Below the pieces are notes generated by a model that was not told where the DNA came from, made no database searches, and worked only from the letters and a program-made list of their open reading frames with translations. Positions 1-19,041 of a stretch of 64,000 bases of DNA are shown in pieces. Within the stretch, counting starts at the first letter, position 1. Every line of letters begins with the position of its first letter. Position numbers and translations under genes: made by a program. The DNA lies in contig JBNMHA010000001.1 in NCBI GenBank assembly GCA_050872545.1, positions 4,047 to 68,046 on the forward strand, read 5' to 3'. This DNA comes from Spirochaetales bacterium (GTDB lineage Bacteria > Spirochaetota > GWE2-31-10).

Positions 1-338
1 GGCTTGCCGGACTGAAAAAACTTTACGTTCCTGTTCGTCACGGCGAGGGAAAATTTATCACAAAGGATGCGGCAGTACTGGAGCGACTGAAAAAAAACGG
101 TCAAGTTGCGTTGCGTTACACTACAGAAGATGGCAGTGAAACTGTTTATCCTTATAATCCTAACGGTTCCGTTTATGATATTGCCGGCATTACAAATGAA
201 AAAGGAAATGTTTTGGGACTTATGCCGCATCCGGAAGCTTATATTTCAAAAGAGTTGCGTCCAAGATGGACAGAAGGAATTGTTGATGAGCATACGGGGC
301 TTGATATTTTCAAAAACGCCGTTTCATATTTCAAATAA
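1..338 (+). CDS. purQ: FGAM synthase glutamine amidotransferase domain (PurQ/PurL C-terminal fragment; 5' end outside the window)
   Basis: The frame is open from the window edge (frame 3) to TAA at 336-338. Translation contains HGEGKF and [10 protein letters not shown], which are characteristic of the class-I GATase of phosphoribosylformylglycinamidine synthase. Confidence 0.7.
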
Positions 339-360
339 CATGTTTTAATCTATTTAATTT

Positions 361-407
361 GGCTGTTCCGGAAGTACGAAAAACTTCACTGGAACAGCCT
401 TTTTTTA
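361..407 (+). terminator. Rho-independent terminator after the purQ fragment
   Basis: Hairpin GGCTGTTCC...GGAACAGCC (9-bp stem) followed by a T7 run, directly after the stop at 338. It also lies at the 3' end of the convergent minus-strand operon. Confidence 0.5.
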
Positions 408-410
408 TTT

Positions 411-575
411 CGTTAAAACTTAACACAAAGAGCGATTGCTGCACCGTTCGGCGTTGCCTGTTGTCTGTGGCTTCTGCCACACGAAAGTTCACCTTTGTTC
501 CCGGAAGTCAGCCCAATGTCTACCGAAAATCGGTTCATTTCACCTTTCAGCCAAGCCCTTGCACCTAATGCCCCG
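411..575 (-). repeat. Conserved 3'-end module, copy 1 of 4 (~165 nt, ~95% nucleotide identity), covering the last ~47 codons, the stop and the intergenic linker
   Basis: Direct comparison with the segments at 1327-1490, 2109-2275 and 3023-3190. Confidence 0.85.
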
Positions 576-1318
576 AACATGAACGATAAGCCAGTACTGC
601 TTACCAAACCGCCAAAAATAGAAAGTGCTCCGCCTAAAACTCGAATAGAATAAGTTGATGAATCTGATTTCCTTAGATTTTCTTCTATCACGCCTAAATG
701 TGTACCTGTAAATAATATTATTCCGCTTATAAACATAGGAACAAAACATCCTCCAACTACACCAAAAGAAATTGCTATTCTCTTGTATAATTTCAGGTGT
801 TTGTTTGAAAGATTGATAAAACGTTCTTTATCTTTAATTTCTCCATTTTGACAAACATCATCTCCTATAATGCTGAATATAATTCCACTCACCAAAAATA
901 CTTGAGAAATAAAAACGGGAAATAGTCCAAAGAAGAAAGTAAAAGGCAGCAAAATTGTACTCATATTCGGGGTTTCAACATCAAAGCATATCTTTTCCCA
1001 CCATTTTGGAATAACGTGATAAGCATATCCTACCGACGCAACTGTATAAGGAACAGACAATGCCAATGAAGTAAATCCTAAAAAACGAGTAGCATGACCT
1101 CTTATTATTTTATATTCTGGAGTTCTTCGCAATGCTCTGCGTTTATTTCGTGCATTACGTCTTTCTTGACGTTCCTGCTTTCTTATTTTTTTATAATCAT
1201 TTTCTATTGAAAAATCTGGTACTGCATTTTCTATTTCCGGCAAATTTTCTGTTTTTTCATTAGCGAAAAAACTTAATGTGCAAAAAAGTAAAACTGTTAT
1301 TAAAATCAATCGCTTCAT
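413..1318 (-). CDS. Polytopic membrane protein, paralog type A (copy 1): signal peptide, Arg/Lys-rich segment, 4-5 TM helices, conserved hydrophilic C-tail
   Basis: ORF of 301 aa. Its N-terminal 40 aa and C-terminal ~50 aa (...AWLKGEMNRFSVDIGLTSGNKGELSCGRSHRQQATPNGAAIALCVKF) are near-identical to the ORF at 2112..3014, while the core diverges. An 11-nt gap separates it from the upstream gene. Confidence 0.6.
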   Translation of the reverse strand: MKRLILITVLLFCTLSFFANEKTENLPEIENAVPDFSIENDYKKIRKQERQERRNARNKRRALRRTPEYKIIRGHATRFLGFTSLALSVPYTVASVGYAYHVIPKWWEKICFDVETPNMSTILLPFTFFFGLFPVFISQVFLVSGIIFSIIGDDVCQNGEIKDKERFINLSNKHLKLYKRIAISFGVVGGCFVPMFISGIILFTGTHLGVIEENLRKSDSSTYSIRVLGGALSIFGGLVSSTGLSFMFGALGARAWLKGEMNRFSVDIGLTSGNKGELSCGRSHRQQATPNGAAIALCVKF

Positions 1319-1326
1319 TTCTGTCT

Positions 1327-1490
1327 CCGTTAGAACTTAACGCAAAGAGCAATCGCTGCACCGTTCGGCGTTATTTGTTGTCTGCGGCTTCTGTCACACG
1401 AAAGTTCGCCTTTATTCCCGGAAGTCAACCCAATGTCTACTGAAAGTCGGTTCGTTTGCCCTTTCAGCCAAGCAGACATTGCGAGACTGG
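1327..1490 (-). repeat. Conserved 3'-end module, copy 2 of 4
   Basis: Nucleotide identity to the modules at 411-575, 2109-2275 and 3023-3190. Confidence 0.85.
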
Positions 1491-2100
1491 TTATCATAAT
1501 CGGAAGAGTAAACAAAGCTGAACTTCCAAATGAAATTAAAATAATTCCAAGAGTAAGCAAATCTTTGTTGTTTTCGTTAAAACAGGCTGCTCCAATTATA
1601 CCGCCGCCAGCTCCTGCAATTGTCAGCCCAACGCCTGTAACAATACCGAATACTAATGCTAATGTTTGCCAAAGTTTTATTCTTGATTTGTAATATTCTG
1701 CCAATTTTTCACTTGAACAATACTGCTGTCTTTTCTGATACAGTTTAACTCCTGTCGACAACATAATTATTCCCGGTATCATAAATCCTAAAGGAATAAC
1801 GCTGAAAAATACCGCATTAAAAAGCCCTAAAGGGAAAACTGTTAATGCAAAATTTATTGATAACGGAACACAGATTAATGACAAAATTCCCGAATGTGCC
1901 AAAAATATGCTTCCTATTGCTGTTCGCCGGATAGCTTTATATGTTTTCACTTCCATTGATTTTTCATCCAAGCGAAATTCCGGCTGTGTTTGCGTATCCT
2001 TTTCTATACAAAACGATGTTTTATCTTCTATTTCATTTGAATATATTTGAATAACCGAAAATATACTTATAAATATTGCTGCAACTAATAACTTGCTCAT
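1330..2100 (-). CDS. Polytopic membrane protein, paralog type B (copy 1)
   Basis: ORF of 256 aa. Its N-terminal ~45 aa (MSKLLVAAIFISIFSVIQIYSNEIEDKTSFCIEKDTQT...) and C-terminal ~60 aa are shared with the ORF at 3026..3799. The hydrophobic core is variable. Confidence 0.6.
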   Translation of the reverse strand: MSKLLVAAIFISIFSVIQIYSNEIEDKTSFCIEKDTQTQPEFRLDEKSMEVKTYKAIRRTAIGSIFLAHSGILSLICVPLSINFALTVFPLGLFNAVFFSVIPLGFMIPGIIMLSTGVKLYQKRQQYCSSEKLAEYYKSRIKLWQTLALVFGIVTGVGLTIAGAGGGIIGAACFNENNKDLLTLGIILISFGSSALFTLPIMITSLAMSAWLKGQTNRLSVDIGLTSGNKGELSCDRSRRQQITPNGAAIALCVKF

Positions 2101-2108
2101 TTCTGCCT

Positions 2109-2275
2109 CCGTTAAAACTTAACACAAAGAGCGATCGCTGCACCGTTCGGCGTTGCATGTTGTCTGCGGCTTCTGTCACACGAAAGTTCGCCTTTGTTCC
2201 CGTAAATCAGCCCAATGTCTACCGAAAGTCGGTTCATTTCACCTTTCAGCCAAGCCCTCGCACCTAATGCCCCGA
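2109..2275 (-). repeat. Conserved 3'-end module, copy 3 of 4
   Basis: Nucleotide identity to the other three copies. Confidence 0.85.
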
Positions 2276-3014
2276 ACATGAATGAGAATCCAAGTCCGGA
2301 AAATATTGTTCCTAAAGTTGTAAGAATTACACCGGATTGTAAGTTAAGAGTGTCTTGATATACTGTTCCACATTTTATTCCGCAAAGTATTCCAATTCCA
2401 CCAGCAAACATTGGGATAAATAATGTTCCAAATACAGCACCAACAATCGTAATGCTGCGAAATATTTTAGATAATTTGATTGAGACTATTTTAAATTGGG
2501 TTTCATCGATTTTTTCTATATTACGTTTTTTATAATATTTGCCGTATGCCAAACTTAAACCTATTCCCACACCGACAGAAGCAATTCCTAACAAAATAGG
2601 AACACTCAAGAAGATAAAAAACAAGGAATATGCAATCCCCCAACTCCAATCGTATGATGATGTGACATCAAATCCGGAATCAAAAAAAAATGCAGCAGCA
2701 GAAGCAAGCGGAATCATTACATGATAGATATAACCTGCTGTCAAAATAGTTGCCGGAACAGAAAAAACTGATGTTGTGACTGCACCAAAAACAATTAAAG
2801 AACTTTTTAACATTTTGTATTCTGCTGTTCTTTTTAAAGCTCTTTTTTCTCGTCGTCTCTCCAATTTTTCTTGCCGCCAAATTTCTCGCTGTTCATTTTC
2901 TATTGAAAAATCTGGTACTGCATTTTCTATTTCCGGCAACGCTTCAGCTTTTTCATTAGCGAAAAAACTTAGTGTGCAAAAAAGTAAAATTGTTATTAAA
3001 ATTAATCGTTTCAT
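2112..3014 (-). CDS. Polytopic membrane protein, paralog type A (copy 2)
   Basis: ORF of 300 aa, mosaic relative to 413..1318 (conserved termini, divergent core). Confidence 0.6.
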   Translation of the reverse strand: MKRLILITILLFCTLSFFANEKAEALPEIENAVPDFSIENEQREIWRQEKLERRREKRALKRTAEYKMLKSSLIVFGAVTTSVFSVPATILTAGYIYHVMIPLASAAAFFFDSGFDVTSSYDWSWGIAYSLFFIFLSVPILLGIASVGVGIGLSLAYGKYYKKRNIEKIDETQFKIVSIKLSKIFRSITIVGAVFGTLFIPMFAGGIGILCGIKCGTVYQDTLNLQSGVILTTLGTIFSGLGFSFMFGALGARAWLKGEMNRLSVDIGLIYGNKGELSCDRSRRQHATPNGAAIALCVKF

Positions 3015-3022
3015 TTCTGCCT

Positions 3023-3190
3023 CCGTTAAAACTTAACGCAAAGAGCGATTGCTGCACCGTTCGGCGTTGCCTGTTGTCTGTGGCTTCTGTCACACGAAAG
3101 TTCGCCTTTATTCCCAGAAGTCAGCCCAATGTCTACAAAAAACCGATTCATTTCACCTTTCAGCCAAGCAGACATTGCGAGACTGGTTAT
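3023..3190 (-). repeat. Conserved 3'-end module, copy 4 of 4
   Basis: Nucleotide identity to the other three copies. Confidence 0.85.
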
Positions 3191-3799
3191 CATAATCGGA
3201 AGAGTTGAAAACACACTTCCACTTCCCACGAATGTAAAAATATTACCTAAGATTCCGTAAGTCGGATTGCTCACTGAAGCAAATAAACTTACGCAAATTA
3301 ATCCTATTCCAGCCAATGCTATCCCTCCACTGCATGAACAAATAATTCCAGATACAATTGCTGATGTCTTTAGTTTCATCAATTTTTTTGTAATAAACGG
3401 CTGCAATTTTTCTAAATGCATATACGAATGCTTGTATTTTTTTATCCCAGAAGACAATAAAACACTGCCCGAGATTAATGTTCCTAATAACCCACCCACA
3501 GATAAACATGTTAATGTTGCACTTAAAACAATTGAACTTATTGAACGCAAATCTGTTAGTAAAAAAACATCAGTCACCGCACAAACATTGAATATTGTTG
3601 TTGCGCTACCTATTAGGATTGCTCCGGCATGAATTTTATTTATTTGGTTTACTAAAATTTTTTCATCCAAGCGAAATTCCGGATGAGTTTGTGTATCCTT
3701 TTCTATACAAAACGATGTTTTATCTTCTATTTCATTTGAATATATTTGAATAACCGAAAATATACTTATAAATATTGCTGCAACTAATAACTTGCTCAT
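3026..3799 (-). CDS. Polytopic membrane protein, paralog type B (copy 2)
   Basis: ORF of 257 aa, mosaic relative to 1330..2100. Confidence 0.6.
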   Translation of the reverse strand: MSKLLVAAIFISIFSVIQIYSNEIEDKTSFCIEKDTQTHPEFRLDEKILVNQINKIHAGAILIGSATTIFNVCAVTDVFLLTDLRSISSIVLSATLTCLSVGGLLGTLISGSVLLSSGIKKYKHSYMHLEKLQPFITKKLMKLKTSAIVSGIICSCSGGIALAGIGLICVSLFASVSNPTYGILGNIFTFVGSGSVFSTLPIMITSLAMSAWLKGEMNRFFVDIGLTSGNKGELSCDRSHRQQATPNGAAIALCVKF

Positions 3800-3811
3800 T
3801 TCTGCCTCCTG

Positions 3812-6800
3812 TTAATCAAAAAGATTAATTAATTTATCATTCATTAAATTAGAATCTATTTCATTCATAGCATCATTAAATACACAATAAATTCTAGTAG
3901 TTTGATGATCATAAAAACCATCCCATCCAAATGTAAAAGAATTTTCCAAAGGAATTGCTTTTTCGATTTGATACCAGTATTTCTCAATATTTTTGTCGTA
4001 ATAACTACGCCCTGCACCAGAAATAAATCCATCAATACTAATATTATTTGAGAAATCAACAAAGTGAGCTTCATCTCTGTAAAGAATATGGATTTCTTGA
4101 GAAATCTTACATGCTGCTAATCGAATTAACTGAACAGTTAAATATGTAAAATCTAAAAAAGTTACAGCTAGCGCAATCTGAAGTGCAATTTCCCAAGAAT
4201 AATTATAAGGCGGAATAATTCCATCATCAAAAGCCGGCGGAACAATTTCATCATCATTACTATAAAAATTGTACATTTTTACCTTTTTGTCGCCGCTGAG
4301 TGAATTAAATGTCTTATTCGGAAACTTAAAGCAATCTCTGTTAGATTTTTCGTTGTCTCCTATATCTGCTGTACTTGTTCCTACGCCGTTCAGTCCTACT
4401 ACAAATGGGATTTCACTCGCAAACTTTTCCATTTTGTCAGTTTGCAGATTGTGCATTGTGATGTTATTCACCGTTACACCGTGCGAATGCCCTATAAGTA
4501 TTATTTGAGACGCTCGGCAGTAAAAAAGGTTTGCCGCTACTCTGTCGTATATAAATTTTTCCAGTGCTTCGGCTGCCGCGTCACGGTATTCATAATTGTT
4601 TTCGCCCGACCAGTTGAAGTAATACGCTTTGTCATTTTGCGAATAATCCAAATTCAAAGCTTTTGCTACAGACGGCTGTTTAAAAAATTTTGCGGTATTT
4701 CCTTCACCGTTTTCGCAAAACATGTAATAGTTTCCATGCTGTTTAGCTTCAGTTACCCACTTATAAAAAAGCGTTCCATGTGTAAATATTACTATTCTGC
4801 TTGTAGGTACATCGTCAAGTTCCGATAAAAACTCCCGGCTGTCATCAGCTTCTTCCGTTACTTCAAACTTTACCACACTGTAATCTTTATACAATTTGTA
4901 CGTATAACTTGTAGTTACGCCTTGGCTGTCTTTTTGTGAACTGACATAAAGAGCCCAATATCCTTCGGTAGCTTTCCTTAAATCTTCCCTAAATGTGTCA
5001 TGCTCATAACCGCTTCCGTTGCTGGATGATGTATGTGATTTCATGTGAATGGAAACAGTTTTCACATATCTAAAATATGACGTACACAATTCATTGCCAT
5101 TTTTATCTAAAAGCGGAACACCTTTTACAAACTTTTTTGTAGGAATATACGGCTGTCCGTTTTTTTGCAGGTAGTATTCGGTATCGCCAATGCGAAAAAG
5201 ATTATTTGAATGAGGTTCACCGCTTTGGTAACAGGCATTCCGCACTGCATTTTCAGTCGCTGCAATTCTGAATTCGCCGACATTGTTTGAAAAAATTGCC
5301 GGAGTCTGCGGTACTTCTATTCTTACTTCCGGTTCATCCGCATCAATAAAATACATATCATTTTCAGGTTCTTTCTGTTCCACTCCGGCAAAGTCCGCCA
5401 GTTTCGCCACAATCTGCATTGCGGTTTCATTTGCCTTTATGTAATCATTATCCCGAAATGTTTTTTGCAGTTTTTTTGTGTCATCAAGCAAATCAATTTG
5501 TTTCCTTGTATCTTCATCCGCCGCCAAACTGACAAGGCGCGAAGTCAATTCCCACAACGTTATGCCCTCTGCACGCCGTACACTGCTTACGTTAGTTGAA
5601 ACTCCTATTAAATCAAAAGTTACTTCCTCATCACGGTCTGCATTTACAAGATACGGAAAACTCAATGTCATATTCGCACCGGCAGCCAATTCTACAGATG
5701 TAGATTTTAAATCCATTTGGACAAACGACGGAATATTTTCAAAACGCAGACATATCACATCAGTTTGCTTTGCATTATTTGTAACTGTTACTTTTATCTG
5801 GCTTTTTACACCTTTAGTGTAATAACCGACATTTGATTGAATCGAAAAATCGGCATCTACAACATTCAGTTTAATGACATGTTCACGTTTTACTTTAGGA
5901 TTGTTTGCCGAACTGCAAATTATCTTTACTTCAGTACTTTTCTTTTCAGTAAGCTTCACTGCAACTTCTATTGTTTCATGAGATTTTCCGTTTAATGCAG
6001 CTGTATTTTTAGATAACTTAACTTGGGCAAAATCAGAATCCGCACTGATAAAATATGAATCCTTAATATCCGTATTATTATGAATTACGATCGATGTTAA
6101 AATTTCTGCATTCAACGGCAATGACAATGAAGAATTTCCAGATATTGTGAAATCCGCATTGCTTGGATTAAACGTAATAGTAAAACTCTGCTTTTGCGCT
6201 GGATTGTTCACTGATGTCAAAGTAATTACTGCTTCTTTTGATGACGTTTCGTTTAGTTTCGCTTCCAATACAAGACTTTTGCTTTCACCGGATTTCACAG
6301 CAAATAAATTTGTCTCGGCTGATATTTCAAGACCAACGGATGGTTCTGTTTCTACTTTGTACGTATCATCAACATCACCATTATTTGTTATATTCAGTGT
6401 CTGCCGAGTACTTTCATTCACTGCTACAAACAACGCATTATTTCCAGATATTGTGAAATCCACGTTACTTGGATTAAACGTAATAATGAAACTTTGTTTC
6501 TGTGCCGGATTGTTCACTGATGTCAAAGTAATTACTGCTTCTTTTGATGATGTTTCGTTTAGTTTCGCTTCCAGCGCAAGACTTTTGCTTTCACCGGATT
6601 TCACGGCAAATAAATTTGTCTCGGCTAATATTTCAAGACCAGCGGATGATTCTGTTTCTACTTTGTACGTATCATCAACATCGCCGTTATTTGTTATGTT
6701 CAGTGTCTGCCGAGTACTTTCGTTCACCGCAACAAACAGCGCATTATTTCCAGATATTGTGAAATCCGCATTGCTCGGGTTAAACGTAATGGTAAAACTC

Positions 6801-8392
6801 TGCTTTTGCGCTGGATTGTTTACTGATGTCAAAGTAATTACTGCTTCTTTTGATGATGTTTCGTTTAGTTTCGCTTCCAGTGCAAGGCTTTTGCTTTCAC
6901 CGGATTTCACTGCAAATAAATTTGTCTCGGCTGATATTTCAAGACCGGCGGATGATTCTGTTTCTACTTTGTACGTATCATCAACATCGCCGTTATTTGT
7001 TATATTTAGCGTCTGCCGAGTACTTTCATTCACCGCAACAAACAACGCATTATTTCCAGATATTGAAAAATCCGCATTGCTTGGGTTAAACGTAATAATG
7101 AAACTCTGCTTTTGTGCCGGATTGTTTACAGATGTCAAAGTAATTACTGCTTCTTTTGATGATGTTTCGTTTAGTTTCGCTTCCAGTGCAAGACTTTTGC
7201 TTTCACCGGATTTCACTGCAAATAAATTTGTCTCGGCTAATATTTCAAGACCAACGGATGGTTCTGTTTCTACTTTGTACGTATCATCAACATCGCCGTT
7301 ATTTGTTATATTTAGCGTCTGCCGAGTGCTTTCATTCACCGCAACAAACAGCACATTATTTCCAGATATTGTGAAATCCACGTTACTTGGATTAAACGTA
7401 ATGGTAAAACTCTGCTTTTGCGCCGGATTGTTCACTGATGTCAAAGTAATTACTGCTTCTTTTGATGACGTTTCGTTTAGTTTCGCTTCCAGTGCAAGGC
7501 TTTTGCTTTCACCGGATTTCACGGCAAATAAATTTGTCTCGGCTGATATTTCAAGACCGACGGATGATTCTGTTTCAACTTTGTATGTATCATCAACATC
7601 GCCATTATTTGTTATGTTCAGTGTCTGCTGAGTACTTTCATTCACTGCTACAAACAGCGCATTATTTCCAGATATTGTGAAATCCGCGTTACTTGGATTA
7701 AACGTAATGGTAAAACTACAGTTTTCATTTGAATCATTTTCCGAAACTGCGGTAATATCGACTTTGCCGATTCTTGATTCCGGCAGCATAACGCTGTAAT
7801 CTACAGTTTCATACTCTCCGGAAGAGATTTTAACTTCAGTTTTTGTCAACGTTAAGCTAACATTTTCACATACCGCCGACAGCGCATATTTATCCGAAAA
7901 TTTTCCGGTATTTCTTACAATGAAATTTCCGGTCAATTGTTTATTCACCGGCAAATACAAAGATGAATCTCCGATTATCTCAACTTTTGCCGGAGTAGAA
8001 ATATCTACAGTCAACAAAATTTCTTTTTTATTCGGACGAAAAGATTCCCCGCCTACGACAAATATAGCTGCCTTGTAACTTCCTTTTTTCAAAGCTTTTA
8101 CGCAAAATATCGCTTCTTTCTTTTCACGTGCATTTACAGAAATTTTTTCTGCAAACTCCAAGTTGAAGCCTTCAGATTTTTCTGCTGACAAATAAAAATC
8201 CTGCGAATAATCCTCTTGATTTTCTATAAATACAGAAAGCAATTGCTCTGTTTCCAACGGCATTTTTTTAAGCAGCTGATTTTCCGACAGTGCAAATTTG
8301 TACTCTCTGTGAGTTTTCACTTCGTTCCATTGTTCCTGCGTACAGCTGAAAATAAACAGCAGCATTATCGACAACAAACTATAGTATTTCAT
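3812..8392 (-). CDS. Giant surface lipoprotein (1526 aa): lipobox, Ig/CARDB-like region, 5.3 near-identical 102-aa tandem repeats, C-terminal alpha/beta-hydrolase (lipase/esterase-like) domain
   Basis: Signal peptide with lipobox IFSC. The unit FTITFNPSN...AQKQS is repeated. The C-terminal region carries HG (FTHGT) and the nucleophile-elbow GHSHG motif typical of lipase/esterase folds. The gene overlaps its neighbours in the operon. Confidence 0.6.
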   Translation of the reverse strand: MKYYSLLSIMLLFIFSCTQEQWNEVKTHREYKFALSENQLLKKMPLETEQLLSVFIENQEDYSQDFYLSAEKSEGFNLEFAEKISVNAREKKEAIFCVKALKKGSYKAAIFVVGGESFRPNKKEILLTVDISTPAKVEIIGDSSLYLPVNKQLTGNFIVRNTGKFSDKYALSAVCENVSLTLTKTEVKISSGEYETVDYSVMLPESRIGKVDITAVSENDSNENCSFTITFNPSNADFTISGNNALFVAVNESTQQTLNITNNGDVDDTYKVETESSVGLEISAETNLFAVKSGESKSLALEAKLNETSSKEAVITLTSVNNPAQKQSFTITFNPSNVDFTISGNNVLFVAVNESTRQTLNITNNGDVDDTYKVETEPSVGLEILAETNLFAVKSGESKSLALEAKLNETSSKEAVITLTSVNNPAQKQSFIITFNPSNADFSISGNNALFVAVNESTRQTLNITNNGDVDDTYKVETESSAGLEISAETNLFAVKSGESKSLALEAKLNETSSKEAVITLTSVNNPAQKQSFTITFNPSNADFTISGNNALFVAVNESTRQTLNITNNGDVDDTYKVETESSAGLEILAETNLFAVKSGESKSLALEAKLNETSSKEAVITLTSVNNPAQKQSFIITFNPSNVDFTISGNNALFVAVNESTRQTLNITNNGDVDDTYKVETEPSVGLEISAETNLFAVKSGESKSLVLEAKLNETSSKEAVITLTSVNNPAQKQSFTITFNPSNADFTISGNSSLSLPLNAEILTSIVIHNNTDIKDSYFISADSDFAQVKLSKNTAALNGKSHETIEVAVKLTEKKSTEVKIICSSANNPKVKREHVIKLNVVDADFSIQSNVGYYTKGVKSQIKVTVTNNAKQTDVICLRFENIPSFVQMDLKSTSVELAAGANMTLSFPYLVNADRDEEVTFDLIGVSTNVSSVRRAEGITLWELTSRLVSLAADEDTRKQIDLLDDTKKLQKTFRDNDYIKANETAMQIVAKLADFAGVEQKEPENDMYFIDADEPEVRIEVPQTPAIFSNNVGEFRIAATENAVRNACYQSGEPHSNNLFRIGDTEYYLQKNGQPYIPTKKFVKGVPLLDKNGNELCTSYFRYVKTVSIHMKSHTSSSNGSGYEHDTFREDLRKATEGYWALYVSSQKDSQGVTTSYTYKLYKDYSVVKFEVTEEADDSREFLSELDDVPTSRIVIFTHGTLFYKWVTEAKQHGNYYMFCENGEGNTAKFFKQPSVAKALNLDYSQNDKAYYFNWSGENNYEYRDAAAEALEKFIYDRVAANLFYCRASQIILIGHSHGVTVNNITMHNLQTDKMEKFASEIPFVVGLNGVGTSTADIGDNEKSNRDCFKFPNKTFNSLSGDKKVKMYNFYSNDDEIVPPAFDDGIIPPYNYSWEIALQIALAVTFLDFTYLTVQLIRLAACKISQEIHILYRDEAHFVDFSNNISIDGFISGAGRSYYDKNIEKYWYQIEKAIPLENSFTFGWDGFYDHQTTRIYCVFNDAMNEIDSNLMNDKLINLFD
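6100..7717 (-). repeat. In-frame tandem repeat array inside the giant lipoprotein gene: 306-bp unit, about 5.3 copies, more than 95% identical
   Basis: Plus-strand shadow ORFs in 6147..7680 recur with a 306-nt period. The protein repeat 'ITFNPSN(A/V)DF(T/S)ISGNN' occurs six times. Confidence 0.9.
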
Positions 8393-8939
8393 TTTCCCTC
8401 CTTATTGTGAAATCAACAACCTTACACTTAATAAAAGGACGATAACTTATTGAACTGACATAACCATTGCCGAAATATGTACTGGCAGATAAACATTGCT
8501 GCACAACAAACGGATAAACAGATAAGGCTTTGTATATTCTGTTATAAAATGAACTTTCCGATTCAGTCACCGGTTCAAATTTTCTGCTAAATGTTATCAA
8601 TTGATTTTCCCGATAGAATATTTCAATTCCGTTGTCTTCACCGTAAACCATACACGGAAGCTTCTTAGGTGTTCTGTTCAATCGATACAAACTGCCGCTT
8701 TCAGAAATAAAAATAAGTTCTTGTTTTGAAAGTCCGTTTACATCGTAAATGTCATTAGCCTGATTTACTAACTTTACAGATGTCAAAGTTTCTTCATCGA
8801 CTTCACTTTCAATTTTTGCCGTATTGTCCACTTGTACTGTAACATTGTCTTCTTCCTGCAAAGTTTTATGGCTTTTCCAAGTACACCCGACATTGATGGC
8901 CACAAAAAGCAGCACAATTATTAACTTAGAAAAAATCAC
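8379..8939 (-). CDS. Hypothetical lipoprotein
   Basis: ORF of 186 aa with signal peptide and Cys (INVGC). Its start and stop overlap the flanking genes, consistent with operon coupling. Confidence 0.5.
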   Translation of the reverse strand: MIFSKLIIVLLFVAINVGCTWKSHKTLQEEDNVTVQVDNTAKIESEVDEETLTSVKLVNQANDIYDVNGLSKQELIFISESGSLYRLNRTPKKLPCMVYGEDNGIEIFYRENQLITFSRKFEPVTESESSFYNRIYKALSVYPFVVQQCLSASTYFGNGYVSSISYRPFIKCKVVDFTIRRENEIL

Positions 8940-10300
8940 ATTTCCTCCCCATAAAAAAAATTAATCTGATAAACAGCAAACTCGTATTTCGTATCGAGAG
9001 TTTTCTTCCTTGCTTCGATTATCCGTTCAATTGCATTTTTTATTTCGTATACTTCGATAAGCCCTTTCTGAAATGCCTCTGTAACTTCCCGATACTCTTC
9101 TTCCGACAATTTTTCATACGCTTCTAACGTTCTTATTTTTTTTCTGTAGTTTTGAATTTGTTTTGTATGCAAGGCATTTTTGTATTCTTTGATTTCTTGA
9201 TGTTCTTGAAGTTCATACTGAAGTTTCTTCTGCTCTTTCCTCAAGTCGCACAATCGCAGCTGTTGTTTGGAGAACGGTAAGGAAAAATTCAAAGGCATTT
9301 TTACAACGAAATTCAAGCTTCCGACTTTGTCATTCCAATATTTGCCGCTATTTTCAAACCAATCTCCTAACCAAGGATTGCGTGTATAACTGGGTGAAAA
9401 CAAGTAATTTACTTGAAGTGACGGAATGAAATGCGCAATTTCTTCCGCAATATTAAGTTTCAGTTCTTTTTGCCGCAACGAAAATTCTTCTTCACGATAT
9501 TCAGAACATGTTTTTTCATCAAAAAAACTCTCATTATGAAAATCTTCTAATTCGCCTGAAAAATAAATATTTTCTTCTCCAAGCAAAAAATTAAGGAACA
9601 TAAGACTTTTCTCATACAAGTTTTCTGTTTCATCAACTTCCTGTTGCAATTCATTTTTTTTCAATTCTGAATAAATAGTTCTGTATTTTTCCAAGCGATC
9701 ATCACATAAAGCCAGCATATTGCAAAATTGTTTTGTCAGTTCTGCATGTTCATTTGTCACTGCATTTTTTGCTTTATGATAAAAAACAGCAGCACAACCG
9801 GATAAAGCTGTTTTCCTAATTTCATTTTCAGCAAGTTCAAATGAAAGTTTGTTCTGCTTTAATAAATTTAACTTACTGCACAGTGACAAAATTGAAGCCA
9901 CGTTAAATTCCCAAACTGAATATGCTGTAAAATTTACACTCCAACGAGGTTTGGTCACATCAAAAGAGTTTGGGATAACTTCATCATATCCATTTGCAGT
10001 CGCACTTAATAAGTTAGGAAGCAATTCTTCGTATGTCGTTGTTCTGTCTTTATCACTCAAATTAGAACGAGAAAAGCTGCCGCATATTCCAAACTGCGGA
10101 ATAAACTCATCAAAACTTTCGATTATTTTCAGTTTTTTCTGCAATATGCTAATATTTTTTTGTTTAAGCGAAAGGCAATGTTTAACTGCCGTATCTGCGG
10201 CTTCTGCCGGAGTGATTAAAACATTTGCTCCGGCAAAAACTACAGAAAACAGAAATACTGAAATTGAAATAAGTTTTTGCATCGACAAAAATTCTTTCAT
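8936..10300 (-). CDS. Secreted coiled-coil protein, possibly a TolC-like outer-membrane channel
   Basis: ORF of 454 aa with a signal peptide. Long helical heptad-like segments alternate with short beta-like stretches, resembling the outer-membrane efflux protein architecture. The family assignment is uncertain. Confidence 0.35.
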   Translation of the reverse strand: MKEFLSMQKLISISVFLFSVVFAGANVLITPAEAADTAVKHCLSLKQKNISILQKKLKIIESFDEFIPQFGICGSFSRSNLSDKDRTTTYEELLPNLLSATANGYDEVIPNSFDVTKPRWSVNFTAYSVWEFNVASILSLCSKLNLLKQNKLSFELAENEIRKTALSGCAAVFYHKAKNAVTNEHAELTKQFCNMLALCDDRLEKYRTIYSELKKNELQQEVDETENLYEKSLMFLNFLLGEENIYFSGELEDFHNESFFDEKTCSEYREEEFSLRQKELKLNIAEEIAHFIPSLQVNYLFSPSYTRNPWLGDWFENSGKYWNDKVGSLNFVVKMPLNFSLPFSKQQLRLCDLRKEQKKLQYELQEHQEIKEYKNALHTKQIQNYRKKIRTLEAYEKLSEEEYREVTEAFQKGLIEVYEIKNAIERIIEARKKTLDTKYEFAVYQINFFYGEEM

Positions 10301-10315
10301 TTCATCACACCCTGT

Positions 10316-10669
10316 TTAGTCGGCACGAACAAAAGTGCCCCAACTCCAAAGTGTCAACTTTCCGCCTGACAATGTGTAAGCGTAAGTTTCATCTTTGTCT
10401 TTAAAGTTGATTATACCGCTTTCGGATTTATCAATTTCCCACTCAAAGCTATTTGAAACCGAACCATTTTTGTAAACATAGTCCACTTTCATTTTGTCAT
10501 TAGATGTGAATTCCAGATTATATTTCTCATACACAGAAAATTCTTTGCTATCAAAATCTTCCGGAACCCATTTCCCAATAAGTCCGCATTCCACTCCAGC
10601 AGGAGTACAGCTCGCCAATGCAAAAATAAATGCAACAGTAATAAAACAAATTTCTAATCCTCTTTTCAT
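10316..10669 (-). CDS. Small 'GKW-motif' lipoprotein (117 aa), first gene of operon 1
   Basis: Lipobox LASC followed by the motif TPAGVECGLIGKW. It is paralogous to 11321..11701 and 63449..63814. Confidence 0.6.
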   Translation of the reverse strand: MKRGLEICFITVAFIFALASCTPAGVECGLIGKWVPEDFDSKEFSVYEKYNLEFTSNDKMKVDYVYKNGSVSNSFEWEIDKSESGIINFKDKDETYAYTLSGGKLTLWSWGTFVRAD

Positions 10670-10706
10670 AGTTAATATCCTTGTAATAAAATTTCACGAA
10701 ACTGTA

Positions 10707-10738
10707 AGATTAGCCGGCTATTGCAATCTCGCTGTCAA
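10707..10738 (-). promoter_or_regulatory. Candidate sigma70-like promoter for operon 1
   Basis: On the minus strand: TTGACA (10738-10733), a 20-nt spacer, then TAATCT (10712-10707), about 40 nt upstream of the RBS AAGGAT and the ATG at 10669. The spacer is longer than optimal. Confidence 0.25.
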
Positions 10739-10770
10739 GTTTTATCGTTCATGAAAAGCGATTTTGCAAG

Positions 10771-10815
10771 AAAAAAAACTTCCCGGAGGTCAAGAAAATT
10801 CTCCGGGAAGTTTTT
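10771..10815. terminator. Bidirectional intrinsic terminator (A8, CTTCCCGGAG, 12-nt loop, CTCCGGGAAG, T5)
   Basis: Perfect 10-bp GC-rich inverted repeat flanked by an A-run and a T-run. It separates operon 2 and the repeat element from the operon-1 promoter. Confidence 0.65.
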
Positions 10816-11027
10816 CTTGGTAAATTTTTTGTTAGTTATATTGATTTTGAAATTAATACAAGTATAATTAAAATTTTTTGTTATAAACAAATCAAGACTT
10901 TATACCAATTTAGTATTATTTACAAAATGTGTGGCAATTTTCTTTGCAGGGGACAGACCTCAATTCTAACTTGGGATACAAGTAAATTCGGGTGGATATG
11001 AAAGTAAACTAAGGGACCGACCTATAT

Positions 11028-11205
11028 GCTATTTTAGAATTAAAGTCTGTCCCTTGTGTTAATGAGATCTCCGGGTCAAGCCCGAAGATGACATAAAATT
11101 TCACAAATTACTTTGTTATTCCCTAACTTGCGTCCTATTGTCATTGCCCGGTGCGACCGGATAATGACATTAGGCTTGTATGGTGTCAGACCTATATGCT
11201 ATTTC
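11028..11205. repeat. 187-bp structured repeat unit (1.1 copies) with internal inverted repeats
   Basis: Contains GGTCTGTCCC pairing with GGGACAGACC upstream, the hairpin ATCTCCGGG-tcaag-CCCGAAGAT, and CCTATTGTCATT-19nt-AATGACATTAGG. Confidence 0.7.
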
Positions 11206-11320: not shown

Positions 11321-11701
11321 TTAACATGTTCGTTCTAAAACTAAAGATCTGGAGAAAATTAAGTATCCGCCGCTTAAAATACATGAAATTTCTCCGTCCG
11401 GAAGTCCTTTGCCCTCACCGTCAATACACTCAATTTCCAAAATTGTTCCATTAAAAATGCAGCCATCGCCTTCTTTACTTGTACCTGTTATTTTATATAC
11501 CTCAGAAAGTTTTTCACTTCCGTTATCCCAAGAATAAACGAAAGTATCATCTGCATAAAATTCTATAATATACGTAACTCCGCCGGATTCGCCGCTCCAT
11601 TTTCCCAATAAATCGCAACTAACGCCAGCACAAGTACACGATATTATCAAAAAAAACAAAGCAACCGGCAGCAATGCAAAAAATCCAATTTTACTTTTCA
11701 T
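11321..11701 (-). CDS. Small 'GKW-motif' lipoprotein (126 aa), last gene of operon 2
   Basis: Lipobox IISC followed by TCAGVSCDLLGKW. Its signal-peptide coding sequence and RBS are identical to those of 11711..12712. Confidence 0.6.
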   Translation of the reverse strand: MKSKIGFFALLPVALFFLIISCTCAGVSCDLLGKWSGESGGVTYIIEFYADDTFVYSWDNGSEKLSEVYKITGTSKEGDGCIFNGTILEIECIDGEGKGLPDGEISCILSGGYLIFSRSLVLERTC

Positions 11702-11710
11702 TGTCGTCTC

Positions 11711-12712
11711 CTAAATCAAAGAACATGTCAAATTTATCATGTTATATTTGTATACTTTATCTGTCCAAGCTTGAATTATGTAGATATTATCCCCATGCCG
11801 TGCGCTATCCGTATCTTTCGTTTTTATTGAAACTCTATCTTTTTCAACACCGCTTCTATCGAATGTTACAATCGATTTATTTGTTAAAAGAGTAATGAAA
11901 TCATCATTTTGATAGAGTGAATTCACACTAAAAAAGCCTCCTGTAGAAAAAACTTTTTCTACATTTAAAACATTATCAATTACCGAATAACGAAACAGAT
12001 CAACATCACGCCTTTCTCTTTCCCCATTATTTTCAGATACAACAAAAGTTCCGAGCAAATAAGGATCATAAAAATCTAAATACAAATAATCTTTATCAAA
12101 GCACGATAAATCAACAAATTTCTTTTGTGTAAGGTTATAAATATCGCTATACCCTAAACTATAAAGCAGAGAAACATAAACATTATTACCATTATGACCG
12201 GCAAATTTAGTCAAATACATTTCGCCTCCCGGCAGTGTCTCGTAGCGTATCTTTCTTGTTTGTGCATTATACACCGCATAAGTCACTGGAACATCTTTGA
12301 ATCCGGGAACACATGGTGCAATCCAAAGTTCATTATTTACATACGTAAAACATTCTGCAACTCTGGAAAGTTCAAAATGGAGTTCCTGTACTTTCCCGGT
12401 CAACGGATTCAAGCGGGCTATACGACCGTTTACAGTTAAAAAATACACGCTTTCATCAAAACTTTTATCATAAAAGAAATCACAAATTATACTTTCCGGG
12501 AATTTATACGTATATATCGCAGTTTCGGTTTTGGTATCGAAAGCAATTATTTTATGGCAATTGTCATCCCATCGGGATGTTAAGAAAATTGTATTTTCAT
12601 CAACATTTATTGGTTTGAAAGACGGAAACGGTGACAACGGTGCTTCACAAGACGTTATCAAAGAAAACAAAGCAAGCAGCAGCAATGCAAAAAATCCAAT
12701 TTTACTTTTCAT
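11711..12712 (-). CDS. Paralogous lipoprotein family member 1 (333 aa)
   Basis: Lipobox ITSC. The N-terminal ~180 aa and the C-terminal RHGDNIYIIQAWTDKVYKY.MINLTCSLI are shared with 12722..13735. A 9-nt intergenic gap precedes it. Confidence 0.6.
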   Translation of the reverse strand: MKSKIGFFALLLLALFSLITSCEAPLSPFPSFKPINVDENTIFLTSRWDDNCHKIIAFDTKTETAIYTYKFPESIICDFFYDKSFDESVYFLTVNGRIARLNPLTGKVQELHFELSRVAECFTYVNNELWIAPCVPGFKDVPVTYAVYNAQTRKIRYETLPGGEMYLTKFAGHNGNNVYVSLLYSLGYSDIYNLTQKKFVDLSCFDKDYLYLDFYDPYLLGTFVVSENNGERERRDVDLFRYSVIDNVLNVEKVFSTGGFFSVNSLYQNDDFITLLTNKSIVTFDRSGVEKDRVSIKTKDTDSARHGDNIYIIQAWTDKVYKYNMINLTCSLI

Positions 12713-12721
12713 TGTCGTCTC

Positions 12722-13735
12722 CTAAATCAAGGAACATGTCAAATTTATCATGTCATATTTGTATACTTTATCTGTCCAAGCTTGAATTATGTAGATATTA
12801 TCCCCATGCCGTGCGCTATACTCACCTTTTATGTCTATTGGAACTCTAGCTTTCTCTCTATAATTATTTTTTTTATCAAAAGCAATGAATGAATCTGTAG
12901 TCACATAAACTATAACATCATCATTTTGATAAAGTGAATTCATATTATAGAAACCATCAGCAAAAAAAAGTTTTTCTACACTCAACACATTATCAGTTAT
13001 CGAATAATGAAATACATCTGTATTACGCTGATTTTGCTGTTCATTCCAATGTACACAAACCATATAAGGGTCATAAAATTCTATACAAAAATAGCATTTA
13101 TTTTCCTTATCCAAACAGGATATATCCACACCTTTTTTCTGTGTAATATTGTAAATCTCTGCCGGCTGCTGTGAAATATAAAATGAAATATATGTATTTC
13201 CATTTTCATATCCGGCATATTCTTCACAAAAGATTACCCCACTCGGCAACGTTTCGTAGCGTACCTTTCCTGTTTGGGCATTATACACCGCATAAGTTAC
13301 CGGAACATCTTTGAATCCGGGAACACACGGTGCAATCCAAAGTTCATTATTTATATACGTAAAACGTTCTGCAACTCTGGAAAGTTCAAAATGAAGCTCT
13401 TGTACTTTCCCGGTTAACGGATTCAATCGGGCTATACGACCATTGAGAGTCAGAAAATACATGCTTTCATCAAAACTTTTGTCATAAAAGAAATCATAAA
13501 TTATACTTTCCGGGAATTTATACGTATATATCGCAGTTTCGGTTTTGGTATCAAAAGCAATTATTTTATGGCAATTGTCATCCCATCGGGATGTTAAGAA
13601 AATTGTATTTTCATCAACATTTATTGGTTTGAAAGACGGAAACGGTGACAACGGTGCTTCACAAGACGTTATCAAAGAAAATAAAACTAACATCGGCAAT
13701 AACAACAACACAAGAAAATTTATTCCGCTTTTCAT
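12722..13735 (-). CDS. Paralogous lipoprotein family member 2 (337 aa)
   Basis: Mosaic relative to 11711..12712. The RBS AAGGAG lies upstream. Confidence 0.6.
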   Translation of the reverse strand: MKSGINFLVLLLLPMLVLFSLITSCEAPLSPFPSFKPINVDENTIFLTSRWDDNCHKIIAFDTKTETAIYTYKFPESIIYDFFYDKSFDESMYFLTLNGRIARLNPLTGKVQELHFELSRVAERFTYINNELWIAPCVPGFKDVPVTYAVYNAQTGKVRYETLPSGVIFCEEYAGYENGNTYISFYISQQPAEIYNITQKKGVDISCLDKENKCYFCIEFYDPYMVCVHWNEQQNQRNTDVFHYSITDNVLSVEKLFFADGFYNMNSLYQNDDVIVYVTTDSFIAFDKKNNYREKARVPIDIKGEYSARHGDNIYIIQAWTDKVYKYDMINLTCSLI

Positions 13736-13926
13736 CGATTCTCCTTAGTGATAGGGGATGTCTAATAAGTTTAAGTCCTAGAGGTCATTGAGCCCGTCGA
13801 AATGACCAAATGTGGTTTCGATATAACCAAAAACTAAAGTTTTTGGCTTGCTCAAACATCGCATTTTCAACTTTTAGGACATTCCCTTTATTTAGTAACT
13901 GTTTGATACACAATTTGAAAATTACG

Positions 13927-14949
13927 CTATTCAATAACTTTCATTGAAAAATCTTCCAAATTGATTTTATAAATACTGTGAGTATCACCTTTTACGCAGT
14001 AAAAGAATCCGTCACGAACATAATTGGAAAAAGAAGATTGCATATTTAAAGAATTTGATTTTTTAAGTCTATAATTATCTTTAGCATAAACCAGAAAACT
14101 TCTTTTTTCAGGATCTATACCATAAACAAATAGATATTTTTCTGTTTCATATACTCCCTGAACTCTAATTTTTTTAATATTAAGAAGTTTATTTACTTCT
14201 AATTTTGGCACTATTGATTTTATTTTATATATAAATACTTCATCTATACTGTCTGCTACTAAAAACCCATTGTAATAATCGTACCAAGAACATTTAACAG
14301 AATTATCCAATGACGATATGTCAAGTTTTTTCTTATCTGTATAATTATATATTTCAGCTTCATCCATATATAATGGCAAGAAAACTTTATCATCCATTTT
14401 AAAAGGTGTTGCATTTAACAAAATTCCTTCCGGCAATTCTTCATAACGATACGAATCGGTAGCCGGTGTATATACAAAATATTTTACAGGGGTATTTTTA
14501 AAACCCGGATAATTCGGACTTACCCACACTTCGTTATTGAAAATTACCAAATCTTCCGGTTCTCTGATTAATTCTATATTTTTAATTTCACTCATTTTCC
14601 CGGAAGTTACATCCAGTTTTGCTGTTCGCCCATCCCCAAATATTACATATATATTGTTTTTATCTGTTTCATAATCATAGGCTACTTCATAAAGACTTAA
14701 ATTTTTATCGAATACATATCTGTAAAGAAGCTTTTGTTTATCTGAATCAAATACAATTATTTCATTTAATTCACTGCCATCTTTTGCGGTAGAGCCATCA
14801 CAATTATCAAAAACAAAAATATTTTCATGCATTTCTATAGATACATCAAACGTCGGCAAAGGAACATCTTTTTGGTTTTCCTCCATATTGCAGCCTACAC
14901 AACTTGTAAATAGACAGAATAAAGCTATGATTTTATATATAAATTTCAC
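13927..14949 (-). CDS. Paralogous lipoprotein family member 3 (about 341 aa from a GTG start)
   Basis: The ORF track starts at 14979, but AAGGAG followed by 6 nt and GTG at 14949 gives the typical signal peptide MKFIYKIIALFCLFTSC. The C-terminus ...KINLEDFSMKVIE is shared with the two upstream paralogs. Confidence 0.5.
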   Translation of the reverse strand: MKFIYKIIALFCLFTSCVGCNMEENQKDVPLPTFDVSIEMHENIFVFDNCDGSTAKDGSELNEIIVFDSDKQKLLYRYVFDKNLSLYEVAYDYETDKNNIYVIFGDGRTAKLDVTSGKMSEIKNIELIREPEDLVIFNNEVWVSPNYPGFKNTPVKYFVYTPATDSYRYEELPEGILLNATPFKMDDKVFLPLYMDEAEIYNYTDKKKLDISSLDNSVKCSWYDYYNGFLVADSIDEVFIYKIKSIVPKLEVNKLLNIKKIRVQGVYETEKYLFVYGIDPEKRSFLVYAKDNYRLKKSNSLNMQSSFSNYVRDGFFYCVKGDTHSIYKINLEDFSMKVIE

Positions 14950-14970
14950 TGTTTGTCTCCTTAGTGATAA

Positions 14971-14995
14971 CTCCCCCATAAAACAAGGGGGGGAG
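14971..14995. other. Intergenic GC hairpin with a homopolymer (C5, 9-nt loop, G7) immediately upstream of the RBS of the 13927 gene
   Basis: CTCCCCC-ATAAAACAA-GGGGGGGAG followed by TTTTATTT. A paralogous copy at 16148-16170 has G6. Confidence 0.7.
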
Positions 14996-15036
14996 TTTTA
15001 TTTAATGACTGCTTGATACACAATTTGAAAATTACA

Positions 15037-16128
15037 CTATTCAATAACTTTCATTGAAAAATCTTCCAAATTGATTTTTAAAACTGCCGGATTTTCTTCA
15101 CCTACAGAGTTTATTGTATAAACATATTTTCCAACTTGGTAAAATTGCTCCAAACTTATAGTCGGATTATATTTTTTCACATCTGGATAATGCTCCCTAA
15201 AAGAATCCAATATTTCGTTTGTTTCAGGATCATACTTTAGAATATCTTTATAAGCTTCGCCTGTATCTAAATACAAATAATCACCATACTCAAGATCTGC
15301 ATAACATACGACATCGAGTGTTTGCAGCGGCTTAGAAACTTTAAACTTTGATTCTCCAAATTCTTCAAGTTTGTACAACGTAGTTTTTGTTTCGTACATC
15401 ATTTTCTCTTCATTTCTTATTTTTTTTCTTTTTCCTACAATGCCTTTTTTGAAAAAAGAAACAAAATGAAAAGCCGTAACTGAATCATCGATTAAATCAG
15501 GAAAATAATCATTCAAATCGATATTCATATCTTTTTGCTTTGTCCAGTTATAAATATCTCTTTGTGTATATGCATTATAAACTGAATCCGCAGCTACAAC
15601 ATATATATCACCGTCATACTTAAAGGGAGAACCTAGAAATTTATACGGTTCTGAAGTAAGCTCTTCGGTTTGGTAATAATAACGATATATTTTATCATTA
15701 TGATTATCCATAAAAAGCAAGTTGTCACTTTCGAATTCAAACATAGAAACCGTTCCGCCCAATGTTGGTTCTCCAAAATATTTTATTTTAGCAGTAGCCG
15801 GATCAAACTCAGACAAACGTGCTAATTTTCTTGAATCCCTATGTCCATGATATACAAAATAGCATTTCTTCTGCTCCTTCACGTATTTAAAATCATGGGT
15901 AATGTTTTTATCTGGATCTAAATGATACCGCTTTACGATTCTATCTGTAGATAAATCAACTGCTAAAAATTGTCTGTTTTTTCCGCAATCAAAAAAGAAA
16001 TATATTGAATCAGTAACTTCTATAGGCTTAAATTCAGGAAATGAACCATCTATTTCTTCTGTACAGCAAGAAAATAAAACTAACATCGGCAATAGCAGCA
16101 ACACAGGAAATTTTATTCCGCCTTTCAT
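15037..16128 (-). CDS. Paralogous lipoprotein family member 4 (363 aa)
   Basis: Signal peptide ending LFSCC. It is about 75% identical to 16212..17309 and shares the C-terminus NPAVLKINLEDFSMKVIE. Confidence 0.6.
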   Translation of the reverse strand: MKGGIKFPVLLLLPMLVLFSCCTEEIDGSFPEFKPIEVTDSIYFFFDCGKNRQFLAVDLSTDRIVKRYHLDPDKNITHDFKYVKEQKKCYFVYHGHRDSRKLARLSEFDPATAKIKYFGEPTLGGTVSMFEFESDNLLFMDNHNDKIYRYYYQTEELTSEPYKFLGSPFKYDGDIYVVAADSVYNAYTQRDIYNWTKQKDMNIDLNDYFPDLIDDSVTAFHFVSFFKKGIVGKRKKIRNEEKMMYETKTTLYKLEEFGESKFKVSKPLQTLDVVCYADLEYGDYLYLDTGEAYKDILKYDPETNEILDSFREHYPDVKKYNPTISLEQFYQVGKYVYTINSVGEENPAVLKINLEDFSMKVIE

Positions 16129-16147
16129 CGATTCTCCTTAGTAATAA

Positions 16148-16170
16148 CTCCCCCATAAAACAGGGGGGAG
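16148..16170. other. Intergenic GC hairpin with a homopolymer (C5, 8-nt loop, G6) upstream of the RBS of the 15037 gene
   Basis: CTCCCCC-ATAAAACA-GGGGGGAG followed by TTTTATTT. Confidence 0.7.
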
Positions 16171-16211
16171 TTTTATTTAATGACTGTTTGATACACAATT
16201 TGAAAATTACG

Positions 16212-18940: not shown

Positions 18941-18977
18941 AATTAATATCCTTGTAATAAGATTTCACGAAATTGTA

Positions 18978-19009: not shown

Positions 19010-19041
19010 GTTTTATCGTTCATGAAAAGCGATTTTGCAAG

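Follow-up and report, generated by a model that had tools for sequence, protein, structure and literature searches.

In PMC2795765 (citing the review by Santoyo & Romero 2005) and in PMC3924843, homogenizing gene conversion is described for bacterial multigene families such as the tuf genes and rRNA operons. PMC2795765 also reports that at the babA/babB and homA/homB loci of Helicobacter pylori the 3′ segments of the paralogs of one strain cluster while the rest of the gene diverges, and it attributes this clustering to intragenomic gene conversion in a segment that presumably encodes a structurally constrained part of the protein (citing Pride & Blaser 2002 and Santoyo & Romero 2005). Among spirochetes, the tpr paralogs of Treponema pallidum combine conserved termini with unique centers and include the chimeras tprGI and tprGJ (PMC3656149). 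Here we describe a locus with likenesses to these systems in Spirochaetales bacterium (GTDB lineage GWE2-31-10; GenBank assembly GCA_050872545.1). Within a 64,000-nucleotide stretch of contig JBNMHA010000001.1 (positions 4,047 to 68,046 of the forward strand; referred to here as the window, with positions counted from its first base), the open reading frame (ORF) list contains four co-oriented genes in the order B2, A2, B1, A1 at 413-3799 on the reverse strand, all of which end in closely similar sequence, the module. The identity of the modules within a genome is very probably kept by recurrent short-patch gene conversion together with unequal crossing-over, that is, by concerted evolution.

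Four tandem paralogs share their 3′ ends

A preliminary description of the region had placed a repeated module of about 165 nt at the 3′ ends of all four genes. Copies are present at all four places, but the block that they share is shorter (Table 1), and the outer 19 nt of the segments first proposed (to 575, 1490, 2275, and 3190) are shared by genes of one type (A or B) but not across types. The last 47 codons and the stop codon occur in all four copies, whereas the 11-nt linker that had been counted as part of the module is found, with the following ATG, after the three internal copies only; the last copy (413) lacks it because a hairpin, probably a shared terminator, comes next. Pairwise identity of the module is 87.9 to 94.3% (mean, ~91%), with 8 to 17 substitutions over 141 coding nucleotides, rather than the ~95% and ~8 substitutions per 150 nt first estimated. 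A 28-mer from the module has exactly 4 matches in the 64-kb window (≤3 mismatches), with 0 expected by chance, and all four proteins end in the 47 residues AWLKG(E/Q)(M/T)NR(F/L)SVDIGLTSGNKGELSCDRS(R/H)RQQATPNGAAIALCVKF.

The module is common to both gene types, as had been proposed, but the sequences upstream of it are not otherwise unrelated: types A and B belong to one family, though they have diverged (core identity, ~24%), and they share the same architecture and are both retrieved by a single profile. The first ~40 codons are also conserved within each type, at 87% identity in repeat family D3 (1172-1471 versus 2868-3167) and at 98% in repeat family D14. At every gene junction the module, the linker, and the N-terminal block of the next gene form a homology tract of ~150 to 300 nt; the N-terminal block of A1 together with the preceding module and linker amounts to ~300 nt. 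The intergenic 11-nt linkers contain GGAGG or GGAGA.

Modules are more alike within a genome than between species

The comparison sequences are all metagenome assemblies. L002, L004, L005, L006, and L020 are syntenic loci of the window's own species, with a purQ flank that is 98.2% identical, and a second species group (L001, L003, and L007 to L012) has a housekeeping methyltransferase that is 84% identical at the amino acid level. We extracted 35 family genes from the window and L001 to L006; their cores fall into six types, and both species groups have five of these; the module is present in every orthologous locus.

Genes of the same type from different species have an amino acid identity of 59% in the core and 64% in the module, and genes of different type from the same species have an identity of 24% in the core and 88% in the module; module identities range from 88 to 92% within a species and from 61 to 64% between species. 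At the nucleotide level, module identity is 0.87 between different types in the same genome versus 0.62 to 0.65 between species groups (0.65 for genes of the same type), and the proportion of synonymous differences (pS) in the module is 0.27 within a genome versus 0.70, which is saturated, between species. When genes of one type are compared between species, the core has a pS of 0.605 and a nonsynonymous proportion (pN) of 0.231, and the module has values of 0.70 and 0.238, respectively; because these values are no lower in the module than in the core, the module has no extra conservation across species as DNA or as protein. Among the paralogs in the window, sliding windows gave a pS of 0.07 to 0.30 in the module and N-terminal blocks (0.12 to 0.23 for the N-terminal block) versus 0.4 to 0.9 in the cores, and synonymous divergence in the module is therefore not equal to that in its flanks. 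The core types have second-species orthologs at 43 to 81% amino acid identity, and so the paralog types are older than the species split; their tails have been homogenized separately in each lineage. Purifying selection acts on the sense frame of the module, in which pN/pS is 0.18 to 0.27.

Conserved ends and divergent middles, taken alone, would also fit a set of recent duplicates in which hypervariable cores diverge quickly under diversifying selection while the ends are young or held by selection on the protein, with no conversion, and the core pN/pS between strains (~0.48) is above the module value. We consider this explanation very improbable. The types predate the species split, the synonymous sites of the cores are saturated between paralogs, and orthologous cores are 97 to 100% identical between strains while the ends diverge more; moreover, protein selection alone cannot give a low within-genome pS together with a saturated between-species pS. 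The cores, which had been described as hypervariable, are instead old and stable paralog types.

Shared variants and rearrangement at the gene junctions

Between strains, the cores of orthologous cassettes differ by only 1.6%, whereas their modules and N-terminal blocks have diverged by 6.9% and 7.7%, respectively (module versus core, Fisher test, p = 1e-22); thus, the gene ends are the unstable parts, and the cores are not hypervariable. Module polymorphism is shared between gene types: for 82 of the 97 module differences between orthologs, each of the two alleles can also be found at the same site in genes of other core types. Four-gamete failures were seen in 243 of 595 informative site pairs in species 1 and in 162 of 406 in species 2, and two L001 genes of different type have modules that are identical over 158 nt. 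Variant patches (GEMNRF/GQTNRL and RQQA/RQQI/RQHA and, in the other species group, ALEKPSGVKLAM/GFERPSGVALAL) occur in differing combinations across types and genomes. The low module pS between paralogs and these mosaic variants shared across gene types strongly support the ongoing gene conversion suggested in the preliminary description.

The order and number of cassettes also differ between assemblies (Table 1). BLASTN synteny blocks between the window and L002 end and overlap in the junction blocks (2292-2097, 1328-1197, and 528-411), with overlaps of 118 to 196 nt. From its sequence, B2 is apparently a chimera: its core is of type 4, but its N-terminal ~45 codons are of type 2 and are 98 to 100% identical to those of B1 (100% over codons 1 to 20), whereas other type-4 genes encode 238 amino acids and start with MNKLL. 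An exact repeat of 117 nt (1994-2110 and 3693-3809) spans the linker and the ~35 initial codons of both B1 and B2; it may reflect a conversion that happened very recently or, alternatively, a join made during assembly.

The module is the coding sequence of a shared C-terminal tail plus, in the internal copies, the Shine-Dalgarno linker of the next gene. In the scheme that we propose, tandem paralogs would overwrite one another's tails, with purifying selection on the peptide added on top, and the divergent cores would be old paralog types that no longer recombine with one another. The breakpoints of array rearrangements (deletion, duplication, and reordering of whole cassettes) lie in the junction tracts. 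We infer that the process is general (RecA-type) homologous recombination and that a structural or partner-binding role of the tail may keep the tails similar enough to go on recombining.

The earlier suggestion that the module is a recombination site holds insofar as the module acts as an ordinary homology substrate, but no recombinase gene or inverted-repeat site was found. Differences in cassette order and number with breakpoints in the junction blocks might also be expected if the module were the target of a dedicated integron- or shufflon-like system that shuffles cassettes by site-specific recombination. This appears highly unlikely, since no recombinase or integrase gene lies near the array in the window, L002, L004, or L001, where the neighbors are purQ/purL and genes for a methyltransferase, AdoHcyase, an Ig-repeat protein, a TolC-like protein, and a lipocalin-like protein. 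The cassettes are all in one orientation, the module lacks a stable hairpin and a palindromic or structured core on either strand, and both the 118- to 196-nt block overlaps and the patchy short tracts fit general homologous recombination.

Composition of the module and predicted pairing with the Shine-Dalgarno sequence

Several points weigh against concerted evolution of the module by conversion and crossing-over. There are only two module flavors and two species groups, and the contrast between species and types consequently rests on a single deep split. Conversion is seen as a pattern between assemblies and not as a direct event. Repeat-rich arrays in metagenome assemblies can be misjoined, and the 117-nt repeat behind B2 carries such a risk; however, exact repeats within the modules are ≤51 nt, L004, L005, and L006, which come from three samples, agree in cassette order, and the adjacency of types 2 and 1a in the window (2->1a) recurs in L020. 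Finally, homogenization alone does not explain the raised GC content at third codon positions (GC3) of the module, since the N-terminal block also recombines and has a GC3 of 0.23. GC3 is 0.43 to 0.47 in the module versus 0.25 in the cores, with 0.28 expected from local codon usage, which places the module in the top 4 to 7% of 47-codon windows of the 64-kb window. The value is raised in both species groups, though synonymous sites are saturated between them. GC-biased gene conversion was considered as the cause of this spike and is unsupported, on the same grounds of a recombining N-terminal block with low GC3.

It is possible, but unlikely, that the module has an additional function in the mRNA, either through pairing of an anti-Shine-Dalgarno CUUCC (Thr-Ser codons, module nt 50-54) with the next GGAGG or as a GC-rich stabilizing or processing element. 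Such pairing would couple the translation of each gene to the termination of the previous one. Predicted pairing of the Shine-Dalgarno sequence with CUUCC has P > 0.9 in 8 of 14 species-1 junctions, and the partner in species 2 is CUUUC or CUUCC despite a different (30-nt) linker; across the junctions of L002, L004, L001, and L003, 15 of 24 (e.g., L002 6150-6333) have such a prediction (P > 0.9) for GGAGG and a CUUCC/CUUUC segment ~90 nt upstream. P(unpaired) averages 0.17 versus 0.32 in synonymous-codon shuffles. In addition, ACTTCCGG shows no wobble-site variation in 18 of the 20 modules compared across the two species groups, and the raised GC3 would be in line with a role of this kind. However, no pairing is predicted at the three junctions of the window, where the partners are altered (GGAGA as the Shine-Dalgarno sequence after B1, and AUUUAC in A2 and CUUCU in B2 as the upstream partners). 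The paralogs do not count as independent observations, the pairing segment is not the same in the two species groups, and a five-base anti-Shine-Dalgarno match within 144 nt easily arises by chance. A between-species pS of 0.70 also means that there is no general constraint on synonymous sites.

Searches for RNA structure gave negative results. A cmscan (Rfam) search of window positions 1-4200 on both strands returned 0 matches at E ≤ 1, and the folding energies of the four module copies on both strands showed no excess over dinucleotide shuffles (z, −0.69 to +1.12). RNAalifold on 20 modules from the two species groups gave a consensus of −4.4 kcal/mol, with a double change in 2 of 20 predicted pairs and thus essentially no covariation. 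A nucleotide-level RNA processing or stability element, as had been raised in the preliminary description, finds no support in these results.

One may also imagine the junction as a selected "cassette connector" in which identical tails serve hetero-oligomers or a common partner, Shine-Dalgarno sequestration provides stoichiometric coupling, and cassettes are lost, duplicated, and reinserted. We regard this idea as doubtful. If it were true, the connector would give strain-specific repertoires of a surface or membrane protein set, and the raised GC3 would reflect its RNA role or GC-biased gene conversion.

Antisense frames over the module

An antisense frame had been reported as open in each copy. 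This is so for three of the four (359-568, 2076-2267, and 2972-3208), but in the copy at 1330 the frame stops at 1443, at a TCA codon that is synonymous in the sense frame. A protein gene or cis-antisense RNA overlapping each module could in principle account for its conservation, and a second antisense frame (495-653, 1433-1693, 2215-2358, and 3129-3260) is uninterrupted in 13 of 14 species-1 copies and in all 10 species-2 copies, with a pN/pS of 0.21. This account is nevertheless extremely improbable. The frame first reported, which lies in the codon-complement register, has a pN/pS of 1.8 and is broken in B1; it is open in 12 of 14 species-1 copies, but among the 10 species-2 copies it is open in 4 and closed in 6, and as a cis-antisense coding element it fails these tests. 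The second frame and the sense frame have a common wobble position, and a low pN/pS is expected in such a frame from sense selection alone, which makes the value of 0.21 uninformative. It is open because the module has almost no Tyr codons or T-preceded CA codons, its starts and lengths (43 to 127 amino acids) are not conserved, and promoter-like sites number 13 against 13.4 expected.

Predicted structure of the tail

In the protein, the tail is made up of the final part of the last membrane helix (AWLKG) and a beta segment of two or three predicted strands, with VKF at its end. An AlphaFold2 model of B1, built with distant relatives, has a predicted local distance difference test (pLDDT) score of 77, with four long helices (46-219) at ~90; its tail contains two short strands (222-226 and 249-253) of low confidence, with pLDDT below 50. 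The A1 model is poor (pLDDT, 57.7). A Foldseek search of the B1 model against the PDB returned generic helical bundles only (E ≥ 0.6) and no significant fold match. The tail probably needs a partner or an oligomer to fold. An outer membrane protein (OMP)-type C-terminal beta-signal (L-x-M-x-V-x-F ending) was considered and rejected as a classification, as the body of the protein is helical.

Distant relatives share the last-helix motif LPxMIxSLxxxAWLKG, and their tails are shorter and of other sequence but have a similar beta pattern and end in F or I. The C-terminal tail is therefore an old feature of the protein, since these relatives keep a beta tail after the same last helix. At L003 9302-9787 (also L007 2340-2690), a 161-amino-acid two-helix protein with an unrelated body carries the same tail from "LGVTSGN" onward; judged by sequence, the tail appears either to have been transferred to another scaffold in the array or to have been kept by it.

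Distribution of the family

For the four proteins, Pfam, NCBIfam, and PADLOC yielded no significant match, only weak SLATT/DUF4231-like ones at E ≥ 0.08, and a sequence profile search of the PDB gave no match below E = 0.026. A word-indexed protein search matched 34 clusters, and no more than 27 family members were recovered when 1.84 billion representative proteins were searched in full with a profile. An alignment-based scan of genome contigs identified 6 loci, all in Spirochaetota metagenome-assembled genomes (MAGs); the same scan with a single protein query gave no match, and exact look-ups of the A1 and B2 proteins matched no contig. A metagenome scan added only 5 further short contigs with the same module flavor, and no module match was found in viral contigs. 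The named carrier genomes are uncultured Spirochaetota/Spirochaetales MAGs from deer cecum and feces. The distant relatives consist of one single-copy locus (L014) and one 1-kb contig (L013).

Array layout and neighboring genes

The positions of the genes and elements of the array, together with the cassette orders by core type, are given in Table 1. The A1 protein carries a signal peptide and a basic stretch, and its four long hydrophobic helices are accompanied by the shared C-terminal tail. The A1 ortholog is at L002 5388-6293 (97% identical), those of B1 are in L002 and L004 (97 to 98%), and those of A2 are at L004 7388-8290 (97%) and L002 9613-10515 (96%). On the 3′ side of A1, an A-run precedes a hairpin (361-399) that faces the convergent purQ-like gene and is probably a terminator shared by the two; the hairpin (361-410 with its T-run) was read by eye, a simple scan not having flagged it.

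Table 1. Features of the four-gene array in the window and order of core types in related arrays
Feature	Position	Strand	Details	Basis
Gene A1, core type 1a	413..1318	-	301 aa; last gene of the array	ORF list
Gene B1, core type 2	1330..2100	-	256 aa	ORF list
Gene A2, core type 0a	2112..3014	-	300 aa	ORF list
Gene B2, type-4 core with type-2 N-terminus	3026..3799	-	257 aa	ORF list, core comparison
Module copy 1 (A1)	413..556	-	last 47 codons plus stop; AWLKGEMNRFSVDIGLTSGNKGELSCGRSHRQQATPNGAAIALCVKF, stop	Alignment, repeat family D4, 28-mer search
Module copy 2 (B1)	1330..1473	-		Alignment, D4, 28-mer search
Module copy 3 (A2)	2112..2255	-		Alignment, D4, 28-mer search
Module copy 4 (B2)	3026..3169	-		Alignment, D4, 28-mer search
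Linker between B1 and A1	1319..1329	-	11 nt, CGGAGACAGAA; weakened Shine-Dalgarno (GGAGA)	Sequence
Linker between A2 and B1	2101..2111	-	11 nt, CGGAGGCAGAA; Shine-Dalgarno	Sequence
Linker between B2 and A2	3015..3025	-	11 nt, CGGAGGCAGAA; Shine-Dalgarno	Sequence
A1 conserved N-terminal block	1199..1318	-	signal peptide and acidic stretch	Repeat family D3, pS
A2 conserved N-terminal block	2895..3014	-		Repeat family D3, pS
B1 conserved N-terminal block and linker	1960..2110	-	98% identical to 3659-3809	Repeat family D14
B2 N-terminal block and upstream linker	3659..3809	-	copy of B1 block	D14, exact repeat
Hairpin, then T-run	361..410		stem GGCTGTTCC/GGAACAGCC; between convergent purQ-like gene and A1	Read from sequence
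Ig/fn3-like repeat protein gene	3812..8392	-	1526 aa; 12 nt upstream of B2	
Cassette order, window			[4,0,2,1]	
Cassette order, L002			[1,2,0,1,4,0,3]	
Cassette order, L004 and L005			[0,1,2,0,3]; L006 consistent	
Cassette order, L020			[?,2,1,0,1,4]	
Cassette order, L001			[3,4,0,1,2]	
Cassette order, L003			[2,0,4,1,1,3,5,2]	

The Ig/fn3-like repeat gene and the four-gene array probably form one operon, and the same neighbor is found in L002, L004, and L005. The repeat gene contains five to six tandem 306-nt repeats (6109-7717, reverse strand; 80 to 91% identity) that correspond to Ig/fn3-like domains, and its product has 1373 amino acids in L004/L005 and 1037 in L002, such that the repeat number appears to vary between strains. 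Further upstream on the same strand, the operon includes genes for a TolC-like outer membrane efflux protein (8936-10300; PF02321, E = 4e-8) and a lipocalin-like protein (10316-10669), and this set also lies upstream of the array in L004 to L006. These neighbors hint that the four-helix proteins are part of an envelope or secretion-related system.

Another set of tandem paralogs (333, 337, 350, 363, and 369 amino acids) lies at 11321-18940 on the reverse strand; these have no Pfam match and carry the internal repeat families D7 to D16. The L001 array is flanked by similar lipoprotein-like genes of 335 to 350 amino acids (2370-3401, 7787-8794, and 9213-10265). Repeats D5, D11, D17, and D18 (83 to 94% identity) occur at 10661-11205 and again at 18932-19646, ~8.27 kb apart, seemingly in upstream or intergenic positions, which suggests duplicated regulatory or 5′ regions bracketing the paralog cluster.

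Significance and comparison with known systems

The family is undescribed and consists of four-helix membrane proteins of gut spirochetes that are encoded beside a TolC-like protein and a giant Ig-repeat protein. The process is a known one, gene conversion, in an undescribed protein family, and the locus holds no new type of genetic element. For annotation and metagenome assembly the array serves as a warning, as such arrays fragment contigs and the similarity of gene ends must not be taken as recent duplication.

In the layout of antigenic-variation systems (vls, tprK, and pilS), one expression site is accompanied by promoterless or truncated donors. This layout was not found among the 35 copies, which are all full-length ORFs with their own start codon, most of them with a Shine-Dalgarno linker within one operon, and the array family has no silent donor cassettes of the tprK type. 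The array resembles the tpr family in its conserved termini, type-specific cores, and the apparent chimera B2; however, Tpr proteins are porin-like outer membrane proteins of ~600 to 800 amino acids from mostly dispersed genes, and the array family has neither sequence nor fold similarity to them.

The babA/babB and homA/homB genes of H. pylori show the same contrast between within-genome and between-genome similarity that is seen in the module. They are, however, dispersed and encode beta-barrel outer membrane adhesins, whereas the spirochete genes are tandem, co-oriented, and in one operon and encode four-helix membrane proteins. The homogenized spirochete block is only 47 codons plus the intercistronic linker, and the two families have no sequence homology.

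As with the tuf genes and rRNA operons, the paralogs within a genome are more alike than the orthologs, also at synonymous sites. In those families whole genes are homogenized, whereas in the array only the junction blocks are, and for this reason the array is cassette-like. The locus offers a clean natural example of segmental concerted evolution, in which the gene bodies stay distinct old types while the same junction blocks are also the places of rearrangement between closely related strains.

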